Origin: Candidatus Omnitrophota bacterium
GTDB lineage: Bacteria; Ratteibacteria; UBA8468; B48-G9; JAFGKM01
Assembly: GCA_023819375.1 (NCBI GenBank)
Contig: JAMWDI010000001.1
Location: forward strand, 107,685 to 171,684
DNA: 64,000 nucleotides
Reading direction: 5' to 3'
Below the pieces are notes generated by a model, which made no database searches, had not been told where the DNA came from, and saw only the letters and a list, made by a program, of their open reading frames with translations. How positions within the stretch are numbered: the first letter of the stretch is position 1; each line of letters starts with the position of its first letter. Positions 2,543 to 29,983 of the stretch are shown one piece after another. The translations under genes were made by a program, and so were the position numbers.

Positions 2543-3277
2543 TTATTCTATGTCTTTCCCTAAAATTCCATTTTTTGTTAAATTTATATCTGGATATCCA
2601 TCATTTGCTGGTAAAATTTCTTTTGCTTTTCTAAATTCAACATGACCATCAACAAATAAATAATTTCTACTTCCTTCCCAACTCCACCATCCATTATTCC
2701 CACCTGTGTGATTATCAAGCCATTCTGCAATTATTATTTTTTTGGTAGGATATGCAACCTGTGAAATTTTTTGACCTACTGTAGGAAAAATTTTATTTTT
2801 ATCATATGTATAACTTTTGTCATCCATCTGGTTAATCTGTTCTGGAGAGTGATAAAAACTCATTGAATATCCATATGAAGTAGATTCCCATTTAGTTGGT
2901 GCAGTTTTATCAGAAGGACAGTGAAAAATATCTTTTGGTCTTGAAAATCTCTTTTTAATTTTGTCATAAGAATATGGATTTATATTTACAAAATAAGGGC
3001 CTATAAGAATTCTCCATCCACGTCCCATCCATAGCCAGTAACCTTCAGGAAATGGATCTTGATATGCAGGGAAAAAACCTTCATAATCATCCGTATACAT
3101 TGAAAACGCAATATATATCTGTTTTAAATTATTCATACATACTGCCTGTCTTGCCCTTTCTCTTGCTTTACTTAACGCAGGCAAAATTAAACTTGATAAA
3201 ATTGATACTATCATAACTACTACTAATAATTCAATTAAAACAAAACCATTACTTTTTATTTTTCTTTCTATAGTCAT
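2543..3277 (-). CDS. Prepilin-type N-terminal cleavage/methylation domain protein with DUF1559-like C-terminal region
   Basis: 244 aa. Short basic leader then G-FVLIELLVVVMIVSILSSLILP (class III signal). C-terminal NYLFVDGHVEF resembles the DUF1559 signature. Overlaps iscU by 29 nt. Confidence 0.65.
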   Translation of the reverse strand: MTIERKIKSNGFVLIELLVVVMIVSILSSLILPALSKARERARQAVCMNNLKQIYIAFSMYTDDYEGFFPAYQDPFPEGYWLWMGRGWRILIGPYFVNINPYSYDKIKKRFSRPKDIFHCPSDKTAPTKWESTSYGYSMSFYHSPEQINQMDDKSYTYDKNKIFPTVGQKISQVAYPTKKIIIAEWLDNHTGGNNGWWSWEGSRNYLFVDGHVEFRKAKEILPANDGYPDINLTKNGILGKDIE

Positions 3278-3638
3278 TAATTGCTGCTTTTAATCCTTCT
3301 TCTGCAAGTAATGAGCAATGTTTTTTTATTGGTGGAAGACCTCCAAGGAATTCAACCACATCTTTATTTGATATTTTTTCTGCTTCAGACAATGTCTTTC
3401 CTTTTGCAAGTTCAGTAACAACTGAACTTGTTGCAATTGCTGCAGCGCAACCAAAAGTTTCAAATTTTATATCCTCAATTATCTCTTCTCCCTTTTCATT
3501 TTTTCTAACTTTTATATATATCCACATTACATCACCACAAACAGGATTTCCAACTTTACCTATACCATCTGCATTTTCAATTCTTCCCATATTTCTTGGA
3601 TTTCTAAAATATTCAAGTACTTTTTCTGTATAGTCCAT
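3249..3638 (-). CDS. iscU: Fe-S cluster assembly scaffold IscU/NifU-N
   Basis: 129 aa. Three conserved Cys contexts (PVCGD, FGCAAAIATSS, KKHCS) as in IscU. Confidence 0.8.
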   Translation of the reverse strand: MDYTEKVLEYFRNPRNMGRIENADGIGKVGNPVCGDVMWIYIKVRKNEKGEEIIEDIKFETFGCAAAIATSSVVTELAKGKTLSEAEKISNKDVVEFLGGLPPIKKHCSLLAEEGLKAAINDYRKKNKK

Positions 3639-3673
3639 TTTTTATTTCCTGCTTTGAAGTTGGAATTTTGAAA

Positions 3674-4585
3674 TTAAACATATTCAAGCATCCTCTCAAG
3701 CGATACTTTTGCTTTCTCTAAAATATCTGGTTTTAAATTTATCTCATATTTTTCTTCTTTCAAAGATAAATATAATTTTTCAATTGTTATCTTTTTCATA
3801 TTTGGACATATTTTACCAGAACCAAGCGAATAAAATTCTTTCTCAGGATTTTCTTTTTTAAGTCTATGCAATAATCCTTCTTCTGTTCCTATTATAAATA
3901 TTTTTGAGTTTGACTCTTTTGCTCTTTTTAACATACCAGAAGTTGAATATATACCATCTGCAAGTTTTTGAATTTCTGGGTCACATTCAGGATGAACAAT
4001 TATTTCAGCATTTGGATATTTTTCCCTTGCTTTTTTTACCTCTTCTACAGTAAATTTTCTATGAACAAAACAATAACCATCCCAACATATTATCTCTTTT
4101 TCAGAAACTTTTTGCTTCACATACCAACACAGGTTTTTATCAGGCAAAAATATAATTTTCTTTGCAGGAACATTTCTTACAACTATATCAGCATTTGCAC
4201 TTGTACAACAAACATCTGATATACTTTTAACATCTGCATTTGTATTTACATAGGAAACAATCCAGGCATCAGGATATTTTTCTTTCATCTTTAAAACATC
4301 TTGGTATTTTGCCATATCTGCCAAAGGACATCCAGCATCTAAATCTGGAAGTAAAACTTTTTTATCAGGTGATAATATTTTTGCTGTTTCAGCCATAAAT
4401 TTAACTCCACAAAATACAATAATTTTTGCATCTTTAACTTGGCTTGCCTTTCTTGCAAGTTCAAGAGAATCACCAACAAAATCAGCCAAATCCTGAATTT
4501 CTGGAATTTGATAATTATGGGCAAGAATTATTGCTTCTTTTTCTTTTTTTAATCTTAAAATTTCCTCAATCATTTCTTCTCCCAA
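3674..4585 (-). CDS. nadA: Quinolinate synthase
   Basis: 303 aa with NadA-typical length and conserved blocks (ILAHNYQ, VHPEC, Cys ligands). Confidence 0.8.
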   Translation of the reverse strand: MGEEMIEEILRLKKEKEAIILAHNYQIPEIQDLADFVGDSLELARKASQVKDAKIIVFCGVKFMAETAKILSPDKKVLLPDLDAGCPLADMAKYQDVLKMKEKYPDAWIVSYVNTNADVKSISDVCCTSANADIVVRNVPAKKIIFLPDKNLCWYVKQKVSEKEIICWDGYCFVHRKFTVEEVKKAREKYPNAEIIVHPECDPEIQKLADGIYSTSGMLKRAKESNSKIFIIGTEEGLLHRLKKENPEKEFYSLGSGKICPNMKKITIEKLYLSLKEEKYEINLKPDILEKAKVSLERMLEYV

Positions 4586-5739
4586 AATGGACTCATTTTT
4601 CTTAATTTTTCAACTATCTTTGGTAATACATCAAGAACTTTATCAACATCTTCTTCTTTATTATATTTACCAAGGGAAAACCTTAAAGAACCATGCGCGA
4701 TTTCAGGTGGAATTCCAATTGCAAGTAAAACATGACTTGGTTCAAGTGAACCAGATGTACATGCAGAACCACTTGAAGCATAAATTTTTTCAAAATCAAG
4801 ATTTAAAAGAATACTTTCTCCTTCAACATATTTAACACACAAATTTAATGTATTATATAAGCGATTTTCAGGATGTCCATTTATAATAATTTCAGGTATA
4901 TTTTCCATTATTCCTTTTTCAAGTTTATCTCTTAAATATTTCACCTTCTTTGCCTCTTCTTCCATTTCTTCTTTTGCTATCTCGCAGGCTTTTCCAAGAC
5001 CTATAATACCTGGAACATTATAAGTCCCTCCTCTTTTTCCTTTCTCCTGTTCTCCACCGTGAATAAATGTCTCAATTTTTGTTCCTTTTTTTATATAAAT
5101 TGCTCCAACTCCTTTGGGACCATAAAATTTATGTGCAGATAAAGAAATTATATCAACTCCAAGTTTTTTCACAGAAACAGGAATTTTGCCAACTGTCTGA
5201 ACACAATCTGAGTGAAAATATATACCATTTTCTTTTGCTATTTTTGCTATTTCTTCAATTGGCTGGATTGTTCCTATCTCATTATTTGCATGCATTATTG
5301 TTATTAAAATTGTTTCTTTTTTAATTGATTTTCTTATAAAATCAACATCAACAACTCCATATTTATCAACTGGTGCATATGTAATTTCATATCCAATTTT
5401 ACTTAAAAATTTACAGGTATTCAAAACAGCATGATGCTCTATCTGACTTGTAATTATATGATTTCCTTTATTTTTTAAAGCAAAAGATATTCCCTTTATA
5501 GCCCAGTTATCACTTTCTGTCCCTCCAGAAGTAAAGAATATTTCTTCTGGTTCTGCATCAATCAATTCTGCAACTTTCTGCCTTGCTTTTTCTATTTCTT
5601 TTTTATTTTCTCTTGCTATTTCATAAATTGAACTGGGATTTCCAAATTTTTCAAAAAAATAATCTTTCATAACTTCTAAAACCCTCGGATCCGTTGGTGT
5701 TGTCGCATTATAGTCCATATAAATTGTTTTATTTTCCAT
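4570..5739 (-). CDS. iscS: Cysteine desulfurase (NifS/IscS class, PLP-dependent)
   Basis: 389 aa. PLP-lysine region SLSAHKFYGPKGVGAIYI and active-site loop SSGSACTSG. Overlaps nadA by 16 nt. Confidence 0.85.
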   Translation of the reverse strand: MENKTIYMDYNATTPTDPRVLEVMKDYFFEKFGNPSSIYEIARENKKEIEKARQKVAELIDAEPEEIFFTSGGTESDNWAIKGISFALKNKGNHIITSQIEHHAVLNTCKFLSKIGYEITYAPVDKYGVVDVDFIRKSIKKETILITIMHANNEIGTIQPIEEIAKIAKENGIYFHSDCVQTVGKIPVSVKKLGVDIISLSAHKFYGPKGVGAIYIKKGTKIETFIHGGEQEKGKRGGTYNVPGIIGLGKACEIAKEEMEEEAKKVKYLRDKLEKGIMENIPEIIINGHPENRLYNTLNLCVKYVEGESILLNLDFEKIYASSGSACTSGSLEPSHVLLAIGIPPEIAHGSLRFSLGKYNKEEDVDKVLDVLPKIVEKLRKMSPFWEKK

Positions 5740-5748
5740 TTTTAAATT

Positions 5749-6153
5749 TTAAATGGTTGATATCATTGCATTCGTTGGACATCCCTTTATGCATAATTCA
5801 CATGCAATACATTTTTCTGGTTCAAATTTAACTTCATATGTATTTCTATTAAGGTATAAAGCCCCTGTTGGACACAAAGCAATACAAACTGAGCAATCCG
5901 TACATCTTTCTTTTATCATTCTTATATCACTCTCTATTAGTTGAATTTTTACTCCTTTACTTTTTAATTCTTCTACCGCATCAAAAACATTTTTTTCTTC
6001 TCCTGAAAAAGCAATTACAAGTGTTCCTTCCTCTTCAGGAGAGACAAAGGCTTTTAAAATGTTAAATTCAAGATTGTATTTCCTCACAATAGTTGAAATT
6101 ATTGGCTTATCAACTAAAACTGGCGGGAAATGCATTACAAATTTTTTTTCCAT
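5749..6153 (-). CDS. NIL-domain / 2x[4Fe-4S] ferredoxin fusion protein (homocysteine biosynthesis partner type)
   Basis: 134 aa. N-terminal NIL domain (LEFNILKA) followed by two CxxCxxCxxxCP ferredoxin motifs. Sits directly downstream of the DUF39 gene, the classic pairing. Confidence 0.7.
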   Translation of the reverse strand: MEKKFVMHFPPVLVDKPIISTIVRKYNLEFNILKAFVSPEEEGTLVIAFSGEEKNVFDAVEELKSKGVKIQLIESDIRMIKERCTDCSVCIALCPTGALYLNRNTYEVKFEPEKCIACELCIKGCPTNAMISTI

Positions 6154-6154
6154 A

Positions 6155-7348
6155 TTATACCTCCTTCATTGGTTTAAATTTATATCCTGATTCTGGACCA
6201 GGGAAATAGAAAATTGGTTCAGTTAATAAAAATTCACCACTTTCAATCCACTTTTTTAAAATTTCTGCTATTTCTTTTGCCTTTTTATAACTTGACAGAG
6301 AACCGGTTGGAATTTCTTTTCCCATCAATTTTATCTTCCCACTTTTCAGTTGTGAGTAATTTACATAATCTAAAATATTTCCTGTTGAATTTGGATAATC
6401 ATAACTGTAATCAACTACAGGTGCATAAATCTCTTCATCAGGTATACTTACCCAATTTAATATTTCTTCATTCAAAATTGGTATTGGAATACCAACACCA
6501 ACTATTAAACTCGTTCCATATCCTGTTAAACTTGCTCCTTTTAAAAATTCTACTTTCATCTGTTTTAAATCACCAATTAAAGCAAGCGTTGCTCCAGGAA
6601 TAGTAGGTACTCCATTTTCCCTTCGTTTTACACCTGGATTATATTGAGTCCCCCACCAACAAACATACCCAATCCCTCCTCCAAGAAAAATCCTTGTCCC
6701 AAATCCAATAGTTTTCAAATATGGATCTTTTAAAAGTGGTGATAATTGCCCTGCTGAACAATAATTTGCATTTCCGAGATTTGGTTTTAAGACTCCCATG
6801 TAAGTATAAATTGTTTTATTTGAAAGATTGACTGCAACATTATAATTCTGATAACAATTTCTTGGATTAAAAAGTATTGCTTCATTTATATCATTTATTG
6901 TAATTTTTGTCTTTAAATATTTTTTTGGATAACAGTCAGTGCCATATGCATAGGCAACAAGTTCAATTTCTTTTCCACTTACTAAATCTTCAATTACATG
7001 TCCACCACCATATTTAAACTCGCCTGGATATTTAGTATTCCTTGGATCATCATCTGGCAAAGCAGTCGCTCCAAGATAAACATCAACAGCAGCAAGTCCA
7101 GAATAAGCAGGGACATTATTTAAATATACTCTTCCTCCACCCATTTTGATTTTTTCTTTTGAATGACCAAAATTTAAAAATACACCAGAAGAACACATAG
7201 GGCCAAAAGTTCCAGTTGTTACAACATCTACCTCTTTTGCGAGTTTTTTAACATTTGTAGATTTTTTTAATTCAATTATTTCATCTGCTGTTAAAACTAC
7301 TACTTCTCCTCTTTTTATTTTTTCATTTATTTCTCTTATCGTTTTCAT
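6155..7348 (-). CDS. DUF39/COG1900 homocysteine biosynthesis protein (putative aspartate-semialdehyde sulfurtransferase)
   Basis: 397 aa. GTFGPMCSSG-type glycine-rich core. Adjacent to a NIL-ferredoxin gene and between cysK and the cysteine desulfurase. Confidence 0.6.
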   Translation of the reverse strand: MKTIREINEKIKRGEVVVLTADEIIELKKSTNVKKLAKEVDVVTTGTFGPMCSSGVFLNFGHSKEKIKMGGGRVYLNNVPAYSGLAAVDVYLGATALPDDDPRNTKYPGEFKYGGGHVIEDLVSGKEIELVAYAYGTDCYPKKYLKTKITINDINEAILFNPRNCYQNYNVAVNLSNKTIYTYMGVLKPNLGNANYCSAGQLSPLLKDPYLKTIGFGTRIFLGGGIGYVCWWGTQYNPGVKRRENGVPTIPGATLALIGDLKQMKVEFLKGASLTGYGTSLIVGVGIPIPILNEEILNWVSIPDEEIYAPVVDYSYDYPNSTGNILDYVNYSQLKSGKIKLMGKEIPTGSLSSYKKAKEIAEILKKWIESGEFLLTEPIFYFPGPESGYKFKPMKEV

Positions 7349-7360
7349 TTTTAACTCCTT

Positions 7361-8272
7361 TTAAAAAACTGATAGATACCTTTCACCTGTGTCTGGCAAA
7401 ATAACAACTATTATTTTACCACTATTTTCTTTTCTTTTCCCAATCTTTATTGCAGCAAAAGTAGCAGCACCTGATGAAATTCCACATAATATCCCTTCTT
7501 CTCTTGCTAATCTTTTTGCTGTCTCTATTGCATTCTCGTCGGATACTTTTATTATTTCATCAATTACTTTTAAATTCAATACATCTGGTATAAAACCAGC
7601 ACCGATACCTTGAATTTTATGTCTTCCTGAAAACCCTCCAGATAAAACAGGAGATTTTTCTGGTTCAACAGCAACAATTTTTACATCTTTTTTCCTCTGT
7701 TTTAGCACCTCTCCTACGCCAGTTATTGTTCCTCCAGTCCCTACCCCAGCCACAAATATATCAATTTTCCCATCTGTATCTCTCCATATTTCTTCTGCGG
7801 TTGTCTTTCTATGTATCTCTGGATTTGCTGGATTTTTAAACTGTTGCGGCATAAACGAATTTTTATATTTTTTTAACAATTCTTCTGCTTTTTTTACTGC
7901 TCCTGTCATACCTTCATCTGCTGGTGTTAATACAATTTCAGCACCAAACAAAGATAATAATTTCCTTCTCTCTATACTCATACTCTCTGGCATTGTTAAA
8001 ATTAATTTATATCCTCTTTGTGCACATACAAAAGCAAGACCAATCCCAGTATTTCCACTTGTTGGTTCAATTATAACTGTATCTTTATTTATAAGTCCTT
8101 TTTTTTCAGCATCTTCAATCATACTTACTGCAATCCTATCTTTTACTGAACCACATGGGTTAAAAAATTCAAGTTTTGCATAAATCTCTGCGTAACATCC
8201 TTTCACAACTTTATTCAATTTTACAAGTGGAGTATTCCCAATCAATTCTGTTATATCCTTTGCAAATTTCAT
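7361..8272 (-). CDS. cysK: Cysteine synthase / O-acetylserine sulfhydrylase family (PLP-dependent)
   Basis: Track ORF 7361..8326; I prefer the ATG at 8272 ([19 protein letters not shown]), which has a GGGGAG Shine-Dalgarno 6-10 nt upstream. PLP-binding SVKDR, glycine loop [10 protein letters not shown]. Confidence 0.8.
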
Positions 8273-8288
8273 AAATTTCTCCCCATTT

Positions 8289-8738
8289 TTAGATTTCGTA
8301 AAAGATAACTTTTTTGTCTCTTTCATTCAATTCTTTTTGCTTTTTTATTAATTCATCTAGAGTTATATTATCAAGATATTCCAAAATTTTTTCTTTTATA
8401 TTACACCATAATTTTCTCGCCACACATATTTCACTTCTTTCACATATTTTGCTTTTTTCAACACATTCCGTTGGAGATATTGTGCCTTCAAGGATTTCAA
8501 TTATTTCTTTAATTTTAATTTCTGATGGATCTCTCAAAAAAGCATATCCTCCCTTGCCACCTTTTGCACTTCTTAAAATTCCTGCTTTTTTCAATGTAAG
8601 CATAATATGCTCAAGATATCTTTCTGATAAATTCTGCCTTTTTGCAATATCTTTAACAAAAATTGGTTTTCCTTTATAATAAACTCCAAGATCTATTAAT
8701 GCTCTTAATCCATACCTTGTTCTTGTTGAAATTTTCAT
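8289..8738 (-). CDS. Rrf2-family transcriptional regulator (IscR/NsrR-like, probable Fe-S sensor)
   Basis: 149 aa. N-terminal HTH ([11 protein letters not shown]), C-x6-C-x5-C cluster ([14 protein letters not shown]) matching the cluster-ligand spacing of Fe-S Rrf2 proteins. First gene of the operon. Confidence 0.85.
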
Positions 8739-8744
8739 TTTAGT

Positions 8745-8804
8745 TATTTATTATTTTTGTTATCATATTACTAATATTATACTTAAAATTTTAAAAAATG
8801 TCAA
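8745..8804 (-). promoter_or_regulatory. Consensus promoter (TTGACA, 17 nt, TATAAT) plus candidate operator for the Rrf2-led operon
   Basis: Minus strand: TTGACA (8804..8799), 17-nt spacer, TATAAT (8781..8776), then ATTAGTAATATGATAACAAAAATAATAAA. Contains the inverted repeat ATATTA-G-TAATAT. The same block recurs upstream of hcp. Confidence 0.55.
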
Positions 8805-9033
8805 ATTTTTTTCTTCCAATTAATTCCTTCCATTTTTTCTCGCCTATACATTCTTTTGCATATTTACACCAGTCAATACAGGATGGCATTTCTCTATAAA
8901 CATAACTTTTACACTTTGGACATCTTGTTCTTACTTCATCACTAAATATTTCAACTTCATATCCACATTTTTCACATTTTTTAACTTCAACTTTTAAAAA
9001 TCTTGGGTCTATTCCAGGACATTTCATAACCAA
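8791..9033 (-). CDS. Small Cys-rich zinc-ribbon/rubredoxin-like protein
   Basis: 80 aa with 8 Cys including CEKCGY and CPKC pairs. Overlaps the upstream ferredoxin-domain gene by 10 nt; last gene of the hcp operon. Confidence 0.4.
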   Translation of the reverse strand: MVMKCPGIDPRFLKVEVKKCEKCGYEVEIFSDEVRTRCPKCKSYVYREMPSCIDWCKYAKECIGEKKWKELIGRKKFDIF

Positions 9034-9854
9034 CCTTCCTCTAATATTTCTCCCTTTAAACTTATTACAACTTTTTTTATAGGAATTTTCTTACCACTTT
9101 TTTTAACCCCTTCTTCAACTATTTTCAAAAGACCACTGCAACAAGGAACTTCCATTATAGCAACTGTTATTGTATTTATATTGTTATTAGTAACTATTTG
9201 ACTTATTTTTTCTATATATCTATCAATACCTGTATCAAGTTTAGGGCAGGCAATTATAATTGTTTTCCCTTTTATAAAATCATTATGAAAATTACCATAT
9301 GAATATGCGGTGCAGTCAGCAGCAAAAAGCAAATCCACCTTTTTAAAATATGGAGCAGATGGACTTACAAGATGAAGTTGTATTGGCCATTGTTTAAGTT
9401 GAGATTTAATTTCTACATTTGGTTTACTCTCTTCAGTTTCTTCTCTTCTATCAACAATTTTCACTCCGGGACAACATGAAACTTCAAAAATTTCTGATAT
9501 GTCTATCTCAATATTTTTTTCTTTTAATACCTCAAGTGCCTGTTTTAGATATTCTGTTTCACCATGTTCTTTCAAATGTTTTAAATGAGCAATAATCGTA
9601 TTTTTCCCTTTTTTTATTATATTTTCCATTGTCTTTTTCTCATCATACTCTTCTGCTTCTTTTTCAACAATTTTTATTGCACCAACCGGACAACTACCGA
9701 TACAAGCACCAAGTCCATCACAAAATAAATCACTTATAAGTCGTGCTTTTCCATCTATAATCTGTAATGCACCTTCTGGACAATTGGGGATACACTTTCC
9801 ACATCCAGTACATTTTTCCTCATCAATTTCAATAATTTTTCTTTTCATAAACAC
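9024..9854 (-). CDS. 4Fe-4S dicluster ferredoxin-domain protein (putative Hcp redox partner)
   Basis: 276 aa. N-terminal CTGCGKCIPNCP and CDGLGACIGSCP motifs; C-terminal domain with CCPG and CCSG pairs. Immediately downstream of hcp. Confidence 0.55.
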   Translation of the reverse strand: MFMKRKIIEIDEEKCTGCGKCIPNCPEGALQIIDGKARLISDLFCDGLGACIGSCPVGAIKIVEKEAEEYDEKKTMENIIKKGKNTIIAHLKHLKEHGETEYLKQALEVLKEKNIEIDISEIFEVSCCPGVKIVDRREETEESKPNVEIKSQLKQWPIQLHLVSPSAPYFKKVDLLFAADCTAYSYGNFHNDFIKGKTIIIACPKLDTGIDRYIEKISQIVTNNNINTITVAIMEVPCCSGLLKIVEEGVKKSGKKIPIKKVVISLKGEILEEGWL

Positions 9855-9857
9855 CCC

Positions 9858-11162
9858 CTATTTTAAAATTTCCTTTAAATCCTTTTCTGGTTCTTCAACA
9901 AGTTTTAAATTAAATTCACTTACCAAATATTTTAAAATTTCTTCATTTATCCATGCAGGTATAATTGGACCTATTCTAATCCCTTTAATTCCAAGATATA
10001 ATAAAGACCATAAAATCGCTACTGCTTTCTGTTCCATCCACATTAAAAAATAAGAAACAGGTAAATCATTAATATCTTTAACATTAAAAAGTTCTGCCAA
10101 AGAAGAGATTATATCTATTCCAACTATTGCATCATTACACTGGCCTATATCTATAAGTCGTGGTACCCCTTCAATATCACCAAGAGCCAAATCATTAAAT
10201 CTAAATTTTCCACAAGCAAGAGTTATTACAATTGTATCCTTTGGTAATATTTCAACAAGTTTTCTAAAATATTCATTTTTATTTGTAGGACTATCACATC
10301 CTCCAATAACAAAAACTCTTCTTATTTTACCGTTTTCTATCAGTTCCTTTATTTTTTCTTTTGAAGACAAAATTGATGATAAAGAAAAACCAGTTGTTAA
10401 AATAGTATCTCCATTTTTTTCAGGTAAATCAGGTAATGTTTTTGCTTTTTCAATGACCTCTGAAAAATCATATCCAGTTATATGTTTAACTTCTGGAAGT
10501 CCTACAATGCCTGTTGTAAAAATTCTATCTTTATATTCATCTTTTGGAATTAAAACACAATTGGAACTTCCAACAATACAAGCAGGAATTTCTGAAAATA
10601 ATTTTTTCTGGTCATACCATGCCTTTCCCAAATTTCCAATAAGATTATCATATTTTCTTATGCCTGGATATCCATGAGCAGGTAAAAGTTCTGAATGAGT
10701 ATAAACATTTATTCCTTTATCTTTGGATTGTTTTAAAATTTCCTCAAGAACTTTTAAACTATGACCTGTAACTATTATACCTTTCCCTTTTCTTGTTCCT
10801 GTAAATACTTCAACTGACTCTGGTTCTCCATATGTTTCAATATGTGCTTTTTTTAACAATTTCATTGTTTCTATATTTATTTTTCCAATATCAAGGGCAA
10901 GTTTAATAAATTTTTCAGTATCAAAATTCACATTTGTTAATGTTGAATATAAAGTTTCAACAAGAAATTTCTCAAGTTTACTGTTTCTATATCCAAGTTC
11001 AGATGCATGATAAAGATAAGCACTTATACCTTTAAGACCAAAAATTAAATTATCCTGCAATCTTGATAATGTTGGACTTTTACCACATACACCATAATTT
11101 ATACATCCTTTTCCCTGACTTGTTTGACTACACTGATAACAAAACATTTTAAAATCTGCCAT
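9858..11162 (-). CDS. hcp: Hybrid cluster protein (prismane; hydroxylamine reductase)
   Basis: 434 aa. Hallmark N-terminal MFCYQCSQT...GC motif and multiple conserved Cys/His/Glu ligand blocks. GGAGG Shine-Dalgarno upstream. Confidence 0.85.
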
Positions 11163-11167
11163 ATTTC

Positions 11168-11228
11168 CTCCTTTTATTACTTTTATTATCGTTTTACTAA
11201 TATTACATTAAATTTATTTTTTTGTCAA
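11168..11228 (-). promoter_or_regulatory. Promoter (TTGACA, 17 nt, TAATAT) plus candidate Rrf2-type operator upstream of hcp
   Basis: Minus strand: TTGACA (11228..11223), 17-nt spacer, TAATAT (11205..11200), then TAGTAAAACGATAATAAAAGTAATAAA and GGAGG. The downstream block matches the Rrf2-operon element at 29 of 33 aligned positions. Confidence 0.5.
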
Positions 11229-11239
11229 GTGAATTTTTT

Positions 11240-11782
11240 TCAACATGTAAATAAAATTTTAAAACCAATGAGAATTAAAATTATTCCGGCAAAAAGTTCA
11301 AGTTTATTTCCAAAAAACTTTTTAATTTTCTCTCCAATATAAAAACCAATCAAACAGACAATGAAAGTTGTAAGACCAATTATTAAAGAAGGAGTTAAAA
11401 CCTGTATTTTTAAAAGAGAAAAGGTAAGGCCCACAGCATAAGCATCAAAACTTGTTGCCAAAGAGAGAAAGAATAAAACAGATAATTTTGCAATATCAAT
11501 TGTTTTTTTTAATTTACCCGATTCGTAAATTATTTTTATTCCAATTATAAATAAAATTAAAAAAGCAACAAGATGATCAAACTCAGAAATATATCTCAAA
11601 AATTTTATACCTGTTAAATATCCTAAAATTGGCATAAAAAATTGAGAAAAGCCAAATGAGAAGGATATTTTAAAACTATTAAGAATTTTCCTTTTAGCAA
11701 TTAATGTTCCAGAAATTACAGAAACAGAGAAAGCATCTATAGAAAGAGAAAGACCAATTAAAAAATTTATAAAAATGTTCAT
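11240..11782 (-). CDS. mntP: Manganese efflux pump MntP-like (DUF204 repeat membrane protein)
   Basis: 180 aa, hydrophobic, two DUF204-type repeats (LSIDAFSVSV and ATSFDAYAVG). Confidence 0.6.
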   Translation of the reverse strand: MNIFINFLIGLSLSIDAFSVSVISGTLIAKRKILNSFKISFSFGFSQFFMPILGYLTGIKFLRYISEFDHLVAFLILFIIGIKIIYESGKLKKTIDIAKLSVLFFLSLATSFDAYAVGLTFSLLKIQVLTPSLIIGLTTFIVCLIGFYIGEKIKKFFGNKLELFAGIILILIGFKILFTC

Positions 11783-29182: not shown

Positions 29183-29213
29183 AAAAATATAAAAGAAGAA
29201 AGGAGGTGAAAGA

Positions 29214-29588
29214 ATGAAAAAAAATAAAAAGAAAGGTTTTACTTTGATTGAATTGATGACAGTGGTAATTATTGTTGGAATTTTAGCGTCAGTTGCTGTT
29301 CCTCTTTATAGAGGACAAGTCAAAAGAGCAATGGCAGCAGAAGGAGCAGCATTACTTGGTTCTGTAAGAACTGCTGAAAGAGTCTATTATGCTGAACATG
29401 GAAAATATACAGATGATAAAACAAAACTGGGGATAGATACAACTGGAAACAAATATTTTAAAGATTATACGATTACACTTACAGGTGGAGGCACTGGATT
29501 TATCGCAACAACAACTGGAGAAGGAGATGCTGCAGGAATTACTGTATCCATTGACCAGGATGGAAATTTAACTTATTCTGGAATTTAA
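29214..29588 (+). CDS. pilA: Type IV major pilin (copy 1)
   Basis: 124 aa. Leader MKKNKKKG then FTLIELMTVVIIVGILA (class III signal, Glu at +5); small Gly/Thr-rich C-terminal domain. Confidence 0.85.
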   Translation: MKKNKKKGFTLIELMTVVIIVGILASVAVPLYRGQVKRAMAAEGAALLGSVRTAERVYYAEHGKYTDDKTKLGIDTTGNKYFKDYTITLTGGGTGFIATTTGEGDAAGITVSIDQDGNLTYSGI

Positions 29589-29608
29589 ATTAAAGGGAGG
29601 GACAAAAA

Positions 29609-29983
29609 ATGAAAAAAAACAAAAAGAAAGGTTTTACTTTAATTGAGTTGATGACAGTGGTAATTATTGTTGGAATTCTTGCTGCTATTGCTGTTCCTCT
29701 TTATAGAAGCAATGTCAAAAGAGCAATGGCAGCAGAAGGAGCAGCATTACTTGGTTCTGTAAGAACTGCTGAAAGAGTCTATTATGCTGAACATGGAAAA
29801 TATACAGATGATAAAACAAAACTGGCAGTAGATACAAGTGGAAACAAATATTTTAAAGATTATACGATTACACTTACAGGTGGAGGCACTGGATTTGTCG
29901 CAACAACAACTGGAGAAGGAGATGCTGCAGGAATTACTGTATCCATTGACCAGGATGGAAATTTAACTTATTCTGGAATTTAG
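29609..29983 (+). CDS. pilA: Type IV major pilin (copy 2, tandem paralogue)
   Basis: 124 aa, same architecture as copy 1, own AGGGAGGG Shine-Dalgarno, TAG stop instead of TAA. Confidence 0.85.
   Translation: MKKNKKKGFTLIELMTVVIIVGILAAIAVPLYRSNVKRAMAAEGAALLGSVRTAERVYYAEHGKYTDDKTKLAVDTSGNKYFKDYTITLTGGGTGFVATTTGEGDAAGITVSIDQDGNLTYSGI

Follow-up and report, generated by a model that had tools for sequence, protein, structure and literature searches.

A promoter-proximal element shared by an Rrf2-led operon and hcp in an Omnitrophota bacterium is a candidate Rrf2 operator

IscR, an iron-sulfur (Fe-S)-cluster repressor of the Rrf2 family known from Escherichia coli and Thermincola potens (PDB 4CIC/4CHU), autoregulates an Fe-S assembly operon. 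NsrR is the nitric oxide (NO)-sensing Rrf2 repressor of hmp, hcp, and ytfE in proteobacteria, Bacillus, and Streptomyces, and CymR, which acts with CysK in Bacillus and Staphylococcus, is an Rrf2 master repressor of cysteine metabolism. The usual regulator of hcp in anaerobes is HcpR, which belongs to the CRP/FNR family. We analyzed a 64,000-nucleotide (nt) stretch of DNA (the window; G+C 28%) from a bacterium of the Omnitrophota, a phylum that to our knowledge has no cultured, genetically tractable members. Two operons of the window, both on the minus strand, share a nearly identical promoter-proximal block; one is led by a gene for an Rrf2 regulator (rrf2) and the other by the gene for a hybrid cluster protein (hcp). 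From its sequence and conservation, this block is very probably a bipartite transcription-factor operator of about 29–33 base pairs (bp) that would lie over the −10, the transcription start, and the first 20 or so transcribed bases.

The gene order on the minus strand is mntP, hcp, a ferredoxin-domain gene, a zinc-ribbon-like gene, rrf2, cysK, HcyBio, NIL-ferredoxin, nifS, nadA, and nifU. The locus resembles that of IscR in that an Rrf2-fold protein with three conserved cysteines in the same segment is the product of the leading gene in an operon with a cysteine desulfurase and a NifU/IscU scaffold, with a candidate operator over its own promoter; rrf2, nifS, and nifU lie on one strand without terminators, in a synteny that is kept elsewhere. 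It is unlike IscR in that the predicted regulon also takes in hcp, cysK, the HcyBio homocysteine genes, and nadA. NsrR offers the parallel of a three-cysteine Rrf2 protein with hcp as a target and an operator at the promoter, and co-localization of nsrR with hcp has been noted earlier (PMC1274295), but the operon context here is one of Fe-S and cysteine biosynthesis, not of NO detoxification alone. As with CymR, cysteine synthase belongs to the predicted regulon and its gene adjoins that of the regulator. HcpR, whose targets in anaerobic bacteria are hcp and, along with it, a ferredoxin-like gene (hcp-frdX; PMC1274295), differs in both protein family and motif (TTGAC-N4-GTCAA or TGTGA-N6-TCACA). 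No HcpR palindrome was found at the hcp promoter, where the TTGACA is the −35. RisR is a single Rrf2 protein with several target operons, which it represses at promoter-overlapping imperfect palindromes flanked by AT-rich sequence (PMC9973013).

Both promoters have the same layout on the minus strand. At hcp, a −35 TTGACA (11223–11228) is separated by 17 nt from a −10 TAATAT (11200–11205) that lies within the element, the whole scoring 10/12 in a promoter scan; from this spacing, transcription is predicted to start at about 11193–11195. At rrf2, TTGACA (8799–8804) is followed after 17 nt by TATAAT (8776–8781), a 12/12 promoter with a predicted start at about 8769. The two were among the strongest promoter-like matches of the scanned region. 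Comparison of 33-mers placed the hcp-proximal copy of the element, TAATATTAGTAAAACGATAATAAAAGTAATAAA, at 11173–11205 and the rrf2-proximal copy, TAATATTAGTAATATGATAACAAAAATAATAAA, at 8747–8779. The copies are identical at 29 of 33 positions without gaps, including an exact 12-mer, TAATATTAGTAA. The likeness begins at the −10, the spacers between −35 and −10 being unrelated. Relative to the predicted starts, the hcp copy spans about −13 to +21 and the rrf2 copy about −11 to +23; the element therefore covers approximately −12 to +22, which is the position of a steric repressor. A preliminary description of this DNA had reported the promoter layout, the near-identical block with its 12-nt exact run, and the onset of similarity at the −10, and all three were reproduced here, with its coordinates right to within a few bases. 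The inverted repeat ATATTA-G-TAATAT that it pointed out in the rrf2 copy is present at 8777–8765, though as only part of a larger bipartite element.

To judge the block against chance, we compared it with shuffled sequence and with the rest of the window. A degenerate form of the 33-mer matched only the two sites at three or fewer mismatches, with 0 matches expected from 100 shuffles. The 12-mer alone was not significant (3 matches at one or fewer mismatches versus 2.0 expected). All other pairs of 33-mers in the window with at least 29 identical positions came from a tandem gene duplication, a local coding repeat, or one paralogous coding pair. Among the 78 pairs formed by 13 intergenic regions, this pair reached 29/33, the next best reached 25, and most fell at 20–24. 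The shared block is not a by-product of AT-richness.

We also examined specificity with position weight matrices. The first was built from 12 sites, all from other genomes and located through protein homology. It ranked the rrf2 site as the top match of the window (26.4 bits) and gave the hcp site 23.3 bits; the next matches were the rrf2 site read in reverse (10.9 bits) and then a distinct site at 7.1 bits. In 200 random 64-kilobase (kb) sequences the maximum scores averaged 8.0 bits, with a peak of 18.8. The second matrix was trained solely on sites outside L001–L080, a set of 80 loci obtained by searching a genome collection with an Rrf2 homologue alignment. Across the 968 kb of these loci it found 22 matches of at least 14 bits, all at hcp, ferredoxin, or rrf2 promoters, compared to 0–1 matches in simulated sequence. 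A matrix scan of the kind that the preliminary description had called for, run on the 64-kb window and the 968 kb of related loci, together with the shuffles and the counts of 33-mer pairs, bears out its view that a shared element of this kind is unlikely to arise by chance. A gene-blind scan of metagenomes for the shorter pattern AATATTASTAAWWYGATWAYA gave at least 120 matches, mostly chance occurrences in AT-rich coding DNA. Among the matches listed, the eight that had TTGAC at −35 distance all lay 38–125 nt upstream of an hcp or Rrf2 gene, with genomes of G+C 0.53 and 0.63 among them, and the matches listed added the lineages L134, L137, L176, and L194 (G+C 0.36–0.63). The short pattern does recur by chance across AT-rich DNA, but the matches listed that stand in a promoter context do so only at hcp and Rrf2 genes.

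The block is found at the same promoter position before hcp or an Rrf2 gene in approximately 20 other lineages with G+C contents of 0.27–0.64. It follows TTGACA and a spacer of 16–18 nt upstream of hcp in L001, L008, L010, L011, L014, L017, L019, and L020, and upstream of rrf2 in L006, L009, L018, L052, and two additional contigs, L201 and L203 (G+C of these loci 0.27–0.50). Over element positions 1–29 the mean column information is 1.19 bits, versus 0.52 bits in the −35/−10 spacer and 0.50 bits in the next 11 bases. This drop in both flanks indicates that the block itself is under selection and the promoter as a whole is not. The element is thereby kept at orthologous promoters of a small set of genes while its surroundings have diverged, as is generally seen for operators.

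Synteny, mapped by tblastn, shows that the order rrf2-cysK-HcyBio-NIL/Fer4-nifS-nadA-nifU is kept in Omnitrophota, Phycisphaerae and other Planctomycetota, Dehalococcoidia, and Syntrophaceae. At least 12 loci have hcp directly upstream of rrf2, the ferredoxin and zinc-ribbon genes being present in some and absent in others, and the ferredoxin-domain gene is syntenic with hcp/rrf2 in L001, L004, L008, L012, L018, L020, and L201. In L005, L008, and L020, hcp has decayed and the element-bearing promoter is kept before the ferredoxin/rrf2 genes. The hcp remnants of these loci (L005:590–680, L008:6870–6940, L020:6900–7150) are mini-open reading frames or frameshifted pieces, the one in L008 being a 22-residue fusion of the hcp N- and C-termini. 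Other clades of the rrf2-cysK-nifS/nifU operon (within L021–L080, mostly at about position 7850–8000 of the locus) carry conserved promoter-proximal palindromes of their own, which fits autoregulation as a family trait. Upstream of rrf2, the Phycisphaerae have the palindrome TACTACTAAnnTAGTAGGAAT, the Syntrophaceae have TTACTATC-N5-GATAGTGATAGTAGTAA, the Dehalococcoidia have a RisR-like site, GTTGAC-N7-GTCAAC, and L057 has two copies of TTACTAGTAA.

The cross-genome consensus is GTAAAATATTAsTAAAAyGATAATAwwAsT. We number the element from the first A of AATATTA, which corresponds to 8778 at rrf2 and 11204 at hcp. Core 1, TTA-S-TAA, is centered at position 8, and its central base is C, G, or T among relatives. 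It is followed by the spacer AAAyGATAAT, the best-conserved segment, and then by a looser core 2 centered at position 25, which reads TTAsTTT in one clade and, as the complement, AAAsTAA in the clade of the window. The core centers are 17 bp apart. Such flips of orientation at fixed positions are those that a double-stranded DNA site tolerates. In the hcp copy, core 1 (TTAGTAA, centered at G11197), spacer (AAACGATAAT), and core 2 (AAAGTAA, centered at G11180) are all present; the rrf2 copy has core 1 (TTAGTAA, centered at G8771), spacer (TATGATAAC), and a degenerate core 2, AAAATAA, around 8754. Described Rrf2 operators are 23–29 bp long with AT-rich flanks (PMC9338935, PMC9973013), and by this analogy the length of the element, its AT-rich flanks, its partial dyad symmetry, and its position at −10/+1 fit an Rrf2 operator.

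The only Rrf2 gene of the window, present as a single copy at 8289–8738 (minus strand), encodes a protein of 149 amino acids that matches one from a metagenome-assembled genome of Candidatus Omnitrophica at 100% identity. It belongs to the Rrf2 superfamily, whose models cover the N-terminal winged helix-turn-helix and the dimerization helix, with scores of 132.8 bits for PF02082 (cutoff 30) and 130.2 bits for TIGR00738 (cutoff 73.3). Its cysteines C92, C99, and C105 do not vary among 24 homologues (46–100% identity), and the three conserved cysteines that mark Fe-S-binding Rrf2 regulators of the IscR/NsrR/RisR type, in the loop following the winged helix-turn-helix domain, are in place. Among the equivalog models of NCBIfam, CymR (NF047409) scored highest at 122.4 bits, under its cutoff of 195; IscR reached 112.0 bits with TIGR02010 (cutoff 207.55) and 90.0 bits with NF008110 (cutoff 275), and NsrR (NF008240) reached 51.2 bits (cutoff 182). 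The best matches in PDB were Thermincola potens IscR (4CIC, 110 bits), Bacillus CymR (2Y75, 86 bits), and E. coli IscR (72 bits). The cluster ligands of IscR are Cys92, Cys98, Cys104, and His107 (PMC5411485), spaced C-x5-C-x5-C, whereas the window protein has C92-x6-C99-x5-C105, has Arg at position 108, and is without an equivalent of His107; no conserved His was found near position 108 in the alignment of homologues. Unlike NsrR, it has R8 in place of the Asp8 cluster ligand, and unlike Bacillus CymR, which is gapped in the aligned segment, it keeps the cysteine triad. By these comparisons the regulator is an IscR/CymR-like Rrf2 protein, of predicted Fe-S type, that falls outside all named equivalogs.

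Among the consensus motifs compared with the element (NsrR, IscR types 1 and 2, RisR, CymR, Fur, and PerR), none fitted better than shuffled sequence. The IscR type 1 and type 2 consensus strings had 9–11 mismatches over 24–25 positions. The NsrR site gATGyAT-N5-ATrCATc (PMC1274295) had 5–7 mismatches of 14, and 36–100% of shuffles were as good. The RisR operator T(t/g)GAC-N7-GTCC(t/a) (PMC9973013) had 4 mismatches of 10, and its sole match was the TTGAC of the −35. The window element lacks the footprinted GAC-N7-GTC of RisR, which the site of the Dehalococcoidia relatives resembles, and has instead TTA-S-TAA cores 17 bp apart. The Fur box TGATAATNATTATCA and the PerR box TTATAATNATTATAA, both of 7-1-7 form, had 4–5 mismatches of 14 at both promoters, only the half-site TGATAAT being present. 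This motif, an Omnitrophota Rrf2 protein, and an IscR-hcp operon were all looked for in the literature, and no account of any of them was found.

A site of this kind stands before the operon that carries an Rrf2 gene of one recognition-helix type, RQxxSxxYLE(H/Q), in nearly every lineage, the signature expected of autoregulation, and on this basis the element was assigned to Rrf2. We consider it likely that the protein encoded at 8289–8738 binds the element as a repressor. An Rrf2 dimer on the element would block RNA polymerase at the sigma-70-type hcp and rrf2 promoters, so that the regulator would act as a repressor of two operons, its own (rrf2-cysK-HcyBio-NIL/Fer4-nifS-nadA-nifU) and hcp-ferredoxin-Zn-ribbon. 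The three invariant cysteines would hold an Fe-S cluster whose loss or nitrosylation alters DNA binding, and Fe-S assembly, cysteine/homocysteine supply, and Hcp would be induced together. Fe-S cluster status may be the signal, a proposal on which we are evenly divided; it is favored because the cysteine triad is invariant and because some element-bearing operons have no cysK. The shared operator of the preliminary description, probably serving the adjacent Rrf2, is supported by conservation, by position specificity, and by hcp-rrf2 synteny, the binding itself being suggested by association, and the C-x6-C-x5-C cluster that it reported is the invariant one described above. Its parallel with NsrR stands as an analogy, and no further, given the score of 51 bits against the NsrR cutoff of 182 and a motif unlike the NsrR consensus.

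Several points weigh against assigning the element to Rrf2 in this way, beginning with the fact that the assignment was made by association. On the side of the protein, the fourth cluster ligand is absent, with R108 at the place of His107 of IscR and R8 at the place of Asp8 of NsrR. The dyad register of the element is ambiguous: a single clean dyad was looked for, and several competing registers were found instead, with complementarity best at centers 8, 12, and 15 (0.57–0.63 versus 0.39 expected). The central spacer is the best-conserved part, whereas the central 7 bp of the NsrR site make no base contacts (PMC9338935). The matrix scan of the source genome covers the 64-kb window. One close lineage (L002/L204/L205) is without the element before rrf2, and, of the hcp copies, that of L018 is degenerate (17 bits) and that of L201 is shorter by 3 nt, with the loss falling within core 1; regulation of hcp by the element would accordingly be common, not universal. 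In L176 and L206 (G+C 0.63–0.64), core 1 and the spacer (AATATTACTAAAAYGATAACA) precede a divergent Rrf2 gene and then rubrerythrin, in promoter regions at L176:9474–9990 and L206:1–1110. This Rrf2 protein has 25% identity and a different recognition helix, so the element does not always stand beside an Rrf2 of the window type. Farther relatives of the L176 protein (L207–L209) are without the element and have other promoter-proximal sequences instead, that of L209 being ATACCA-N3-TGGTAT. The idea that the element is a trait of the L176 Rrf2 subfamily was rejected, the element being shared only with the closest relative, L206. Capture of these genes into the regulon of a window-type Rrf2 encoded elsewhere in the L176 and L206 genomes is probable.

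The L176/L206 lineage also bears on a serious rival to binding by Rrf2, namely that the operator is real and is bound by another protein, either the Fur/PerR-like protein encoded at 991–1410 or a global stress regulator encoded elsewhere, with rrf2 as one of its targets. In that lineage the element precedes an Rrf2 gene with an unrelated recognition helix, and hcp, Fe-S assembly, and the rubrerythrin of L176/L206 together resemble an oxidative/nitrosative stress regulon; the conserved TGATAAT is, moreover, one half-site of the classical Fur box. The full Fur and PerR boxes, however, fit no better than shuffles, no Fur-family gene lies within 8–10 kb in any other element-bearing locus, and the PerR-like gene of the window has its own, different palindrome. 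Outside the L176/L206 lineage, an Rrf2 with the RQxxSxxYLE(H/Q) helix is encoded in or beside the element-bearing operon throughout. We regard a different regulator as unlikely on balance. Rather unlikely, in our view, is a variant in which operator and Rrf2 are as proposed and the signal is cysteine or O-acetylserine sensed through a CysK complex, as for Bacillus CymR. CymR is the top NCBIfam match (122 bits), cysK comes right after rrf2 in the window and in most related loci, and an rrf2-cysK pair has been proposed to be CymR in C. acetobutylicum (PMC3828012). Yet the score is under the CymR cutoff of 195, the cysteine triad is invariant where Bacillus CymR has a gap, element-bearing operons of L006, L010/L011/L014/L017, and L134 are without cysK, and the Bacillus CymR consensus does not fit the element.

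The block might also act as RNA, either as a 5' leader affecting translation or stability or as the target of a small RNA. About two-thirds of it (roughly +1 to +22) would lie within the predicted transcript, and in some lineages its conservation reaches the ribosome-binding site. The leaders nevertheless gave no Rfam match at E values up to 1, and three short ones had minimum free energies of 0 to −1.8 kcal/mol and are essentially unstructured; z-scores ranged from −0.13 to +1.33 in all four leaders tested, including the 125-nt leader of L006. The block starts upstream of the transcription start and takes in the −10, and, depending on the locus, it lies some 38 to 276 nt ahead of the start codon. 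In addition, the G/C at both core centers flips and core 2 occurs in either orientation, changes that are neutral for double-stranded DNA but not for RNA. A role at the RNA level is consequently very unlikely. It is hardly credible that the block is a leftover of promoter duplication, or an AT-rich coincidence, with no regulatory role. A genome of 72% A+T, a 12-mer that is not significant by itself, and a 21-nt degenerate pattern with over 100 chance occurrences in metagenomic DNA all speak for such an origin. Against it, the unrelated spacers between −35 and −10 show that the promoter was not duplicated in full; the block is kept in genomes of up to 64% G+C; and all matrix matches in 968 kb lie at hcp/rrf2 promoters.

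With Rrf2 as the probable binder, the analysis supplies a predicted operator and a two-operon regulon for an uncharacterized Rrf2 regulator. Several uncultured lineages have hcp linked physically, and probably also in transcription, to the genes for making Fe-S clusters and cysteine/homocysteine. Since what Hcp does physiologically is still under debate (PMC10210160), a regulatory tie to Fe-S homeostasis is a useful clue. Tentatively, and with somewhat less than even confidence, we suggest that the element and its Rrf2 represent an undescribed Fe-S-sensing Rrf2 subfamily of Omnitrophota and neighboring uncultured lineages, with an operator unlike those of IscR, NsrR, CymR, RisR, and RsrR, and with hcp drawn into an Fe-S/cysteine/homocysteine transcription unit. 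If so, Hcp in these anaerobes would serve Fe-S homeostasis or repair and not stand-alone NO detoxification under a dedicated NO sensor. What is new is the motif and the composition of the regulon; an autoregulated Rrf2 repressor with a promoter-overlapping operator is known, the architecture is as expected, and the understanding of Rrf2 repressor systems is unchanged.

The genes of the two operons were assigned as follows, all on the minus strand. The hcp gene (9858–11162) encodes a short, class-III-type hybrid cluster protein/hydroxylamine reductase of 434 amino acids (TIGR01703, 615 bits, cutoff 361; Pfam Prismane), and mntP lies at 11240–11782. The ferredoxin-domain gene (9024–9854; 276 amino acids, Pfam Fer4 families) is probably co-transcribed with hcp. 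The zinc-ribbon-like gene (8791–9033) encodes a cysteine-rich protein of 80 amino acids, assigned from a weak Zn_ribbon_8 match and from synteny, and the −35 of the rrf2 promoter sits within its 3' end. A promoter/terminator scan of the region found no terminator-like site between this gene and rrf2; the hcp operon therefore probably reads through into rrf2, so that the hcp promoter would also feed the rrf2 operon. Downstream of rrf2 the operon continues over 3249–8326 with cysK (7361–8326), the gene for a HcyBio/DUF39 homocysteine-synthesis protein (6155–7348), NIL-ferredoxin (5749–6153), nifS (4570–5739; TIGR03402, 602 bits), nadA (3674–4585), and nifU (3249–3638). The cysK open reading frame as listed overlaps rrf2 by 38 nt, its homology begins with residue 25, and the true start is probably the internal ATG at 8272, which has GGGGAG ahead of it. 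The start codon of rrf2 has no Shine-Dalgarno sequence (AAATAACTAAAATG, region 8739–8760), as is also the case in L018 and L052, and translation of the regulator may be weak; hcp carries AAAGGAGG ahead of its start (region 11163–11180).

The PerR-like Fur-family gene (991–1410) closes the gene cluster, coming after further genes. Upstream of it, at 1411–1492 on the minus strand, the 7-1-7 palindrome TTGTAATTAGTACAA comes after a TTGACA-17-TAAAAT promoter; it differs from the PerR box at 3 positions and is a candidate site for PerR autoregulation. This site shares TAATTAGTA-like bases with the hcp/rrf2 element and has a low matrix score. A prepilin-type N-methyl/DUF1559 (SBP_bac_10) gene (2543–3277) is found within the Fe-S assembly operon, between nifU and a gene for a NifU C-terminal domain, and a similar prepilin-type gene lies between the zinc-ribbon gene and rrf2 in L201 (7123–7821). 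Elsewhere in the window, 29213–29934 is a tandem duplication with a period of approximately 395 bp whose near-identical copies give many 33/33 and 32/33 windows; each copy opens with an ATG and a lysine-rich N-terminus, and the copies look like duplicated small genes.

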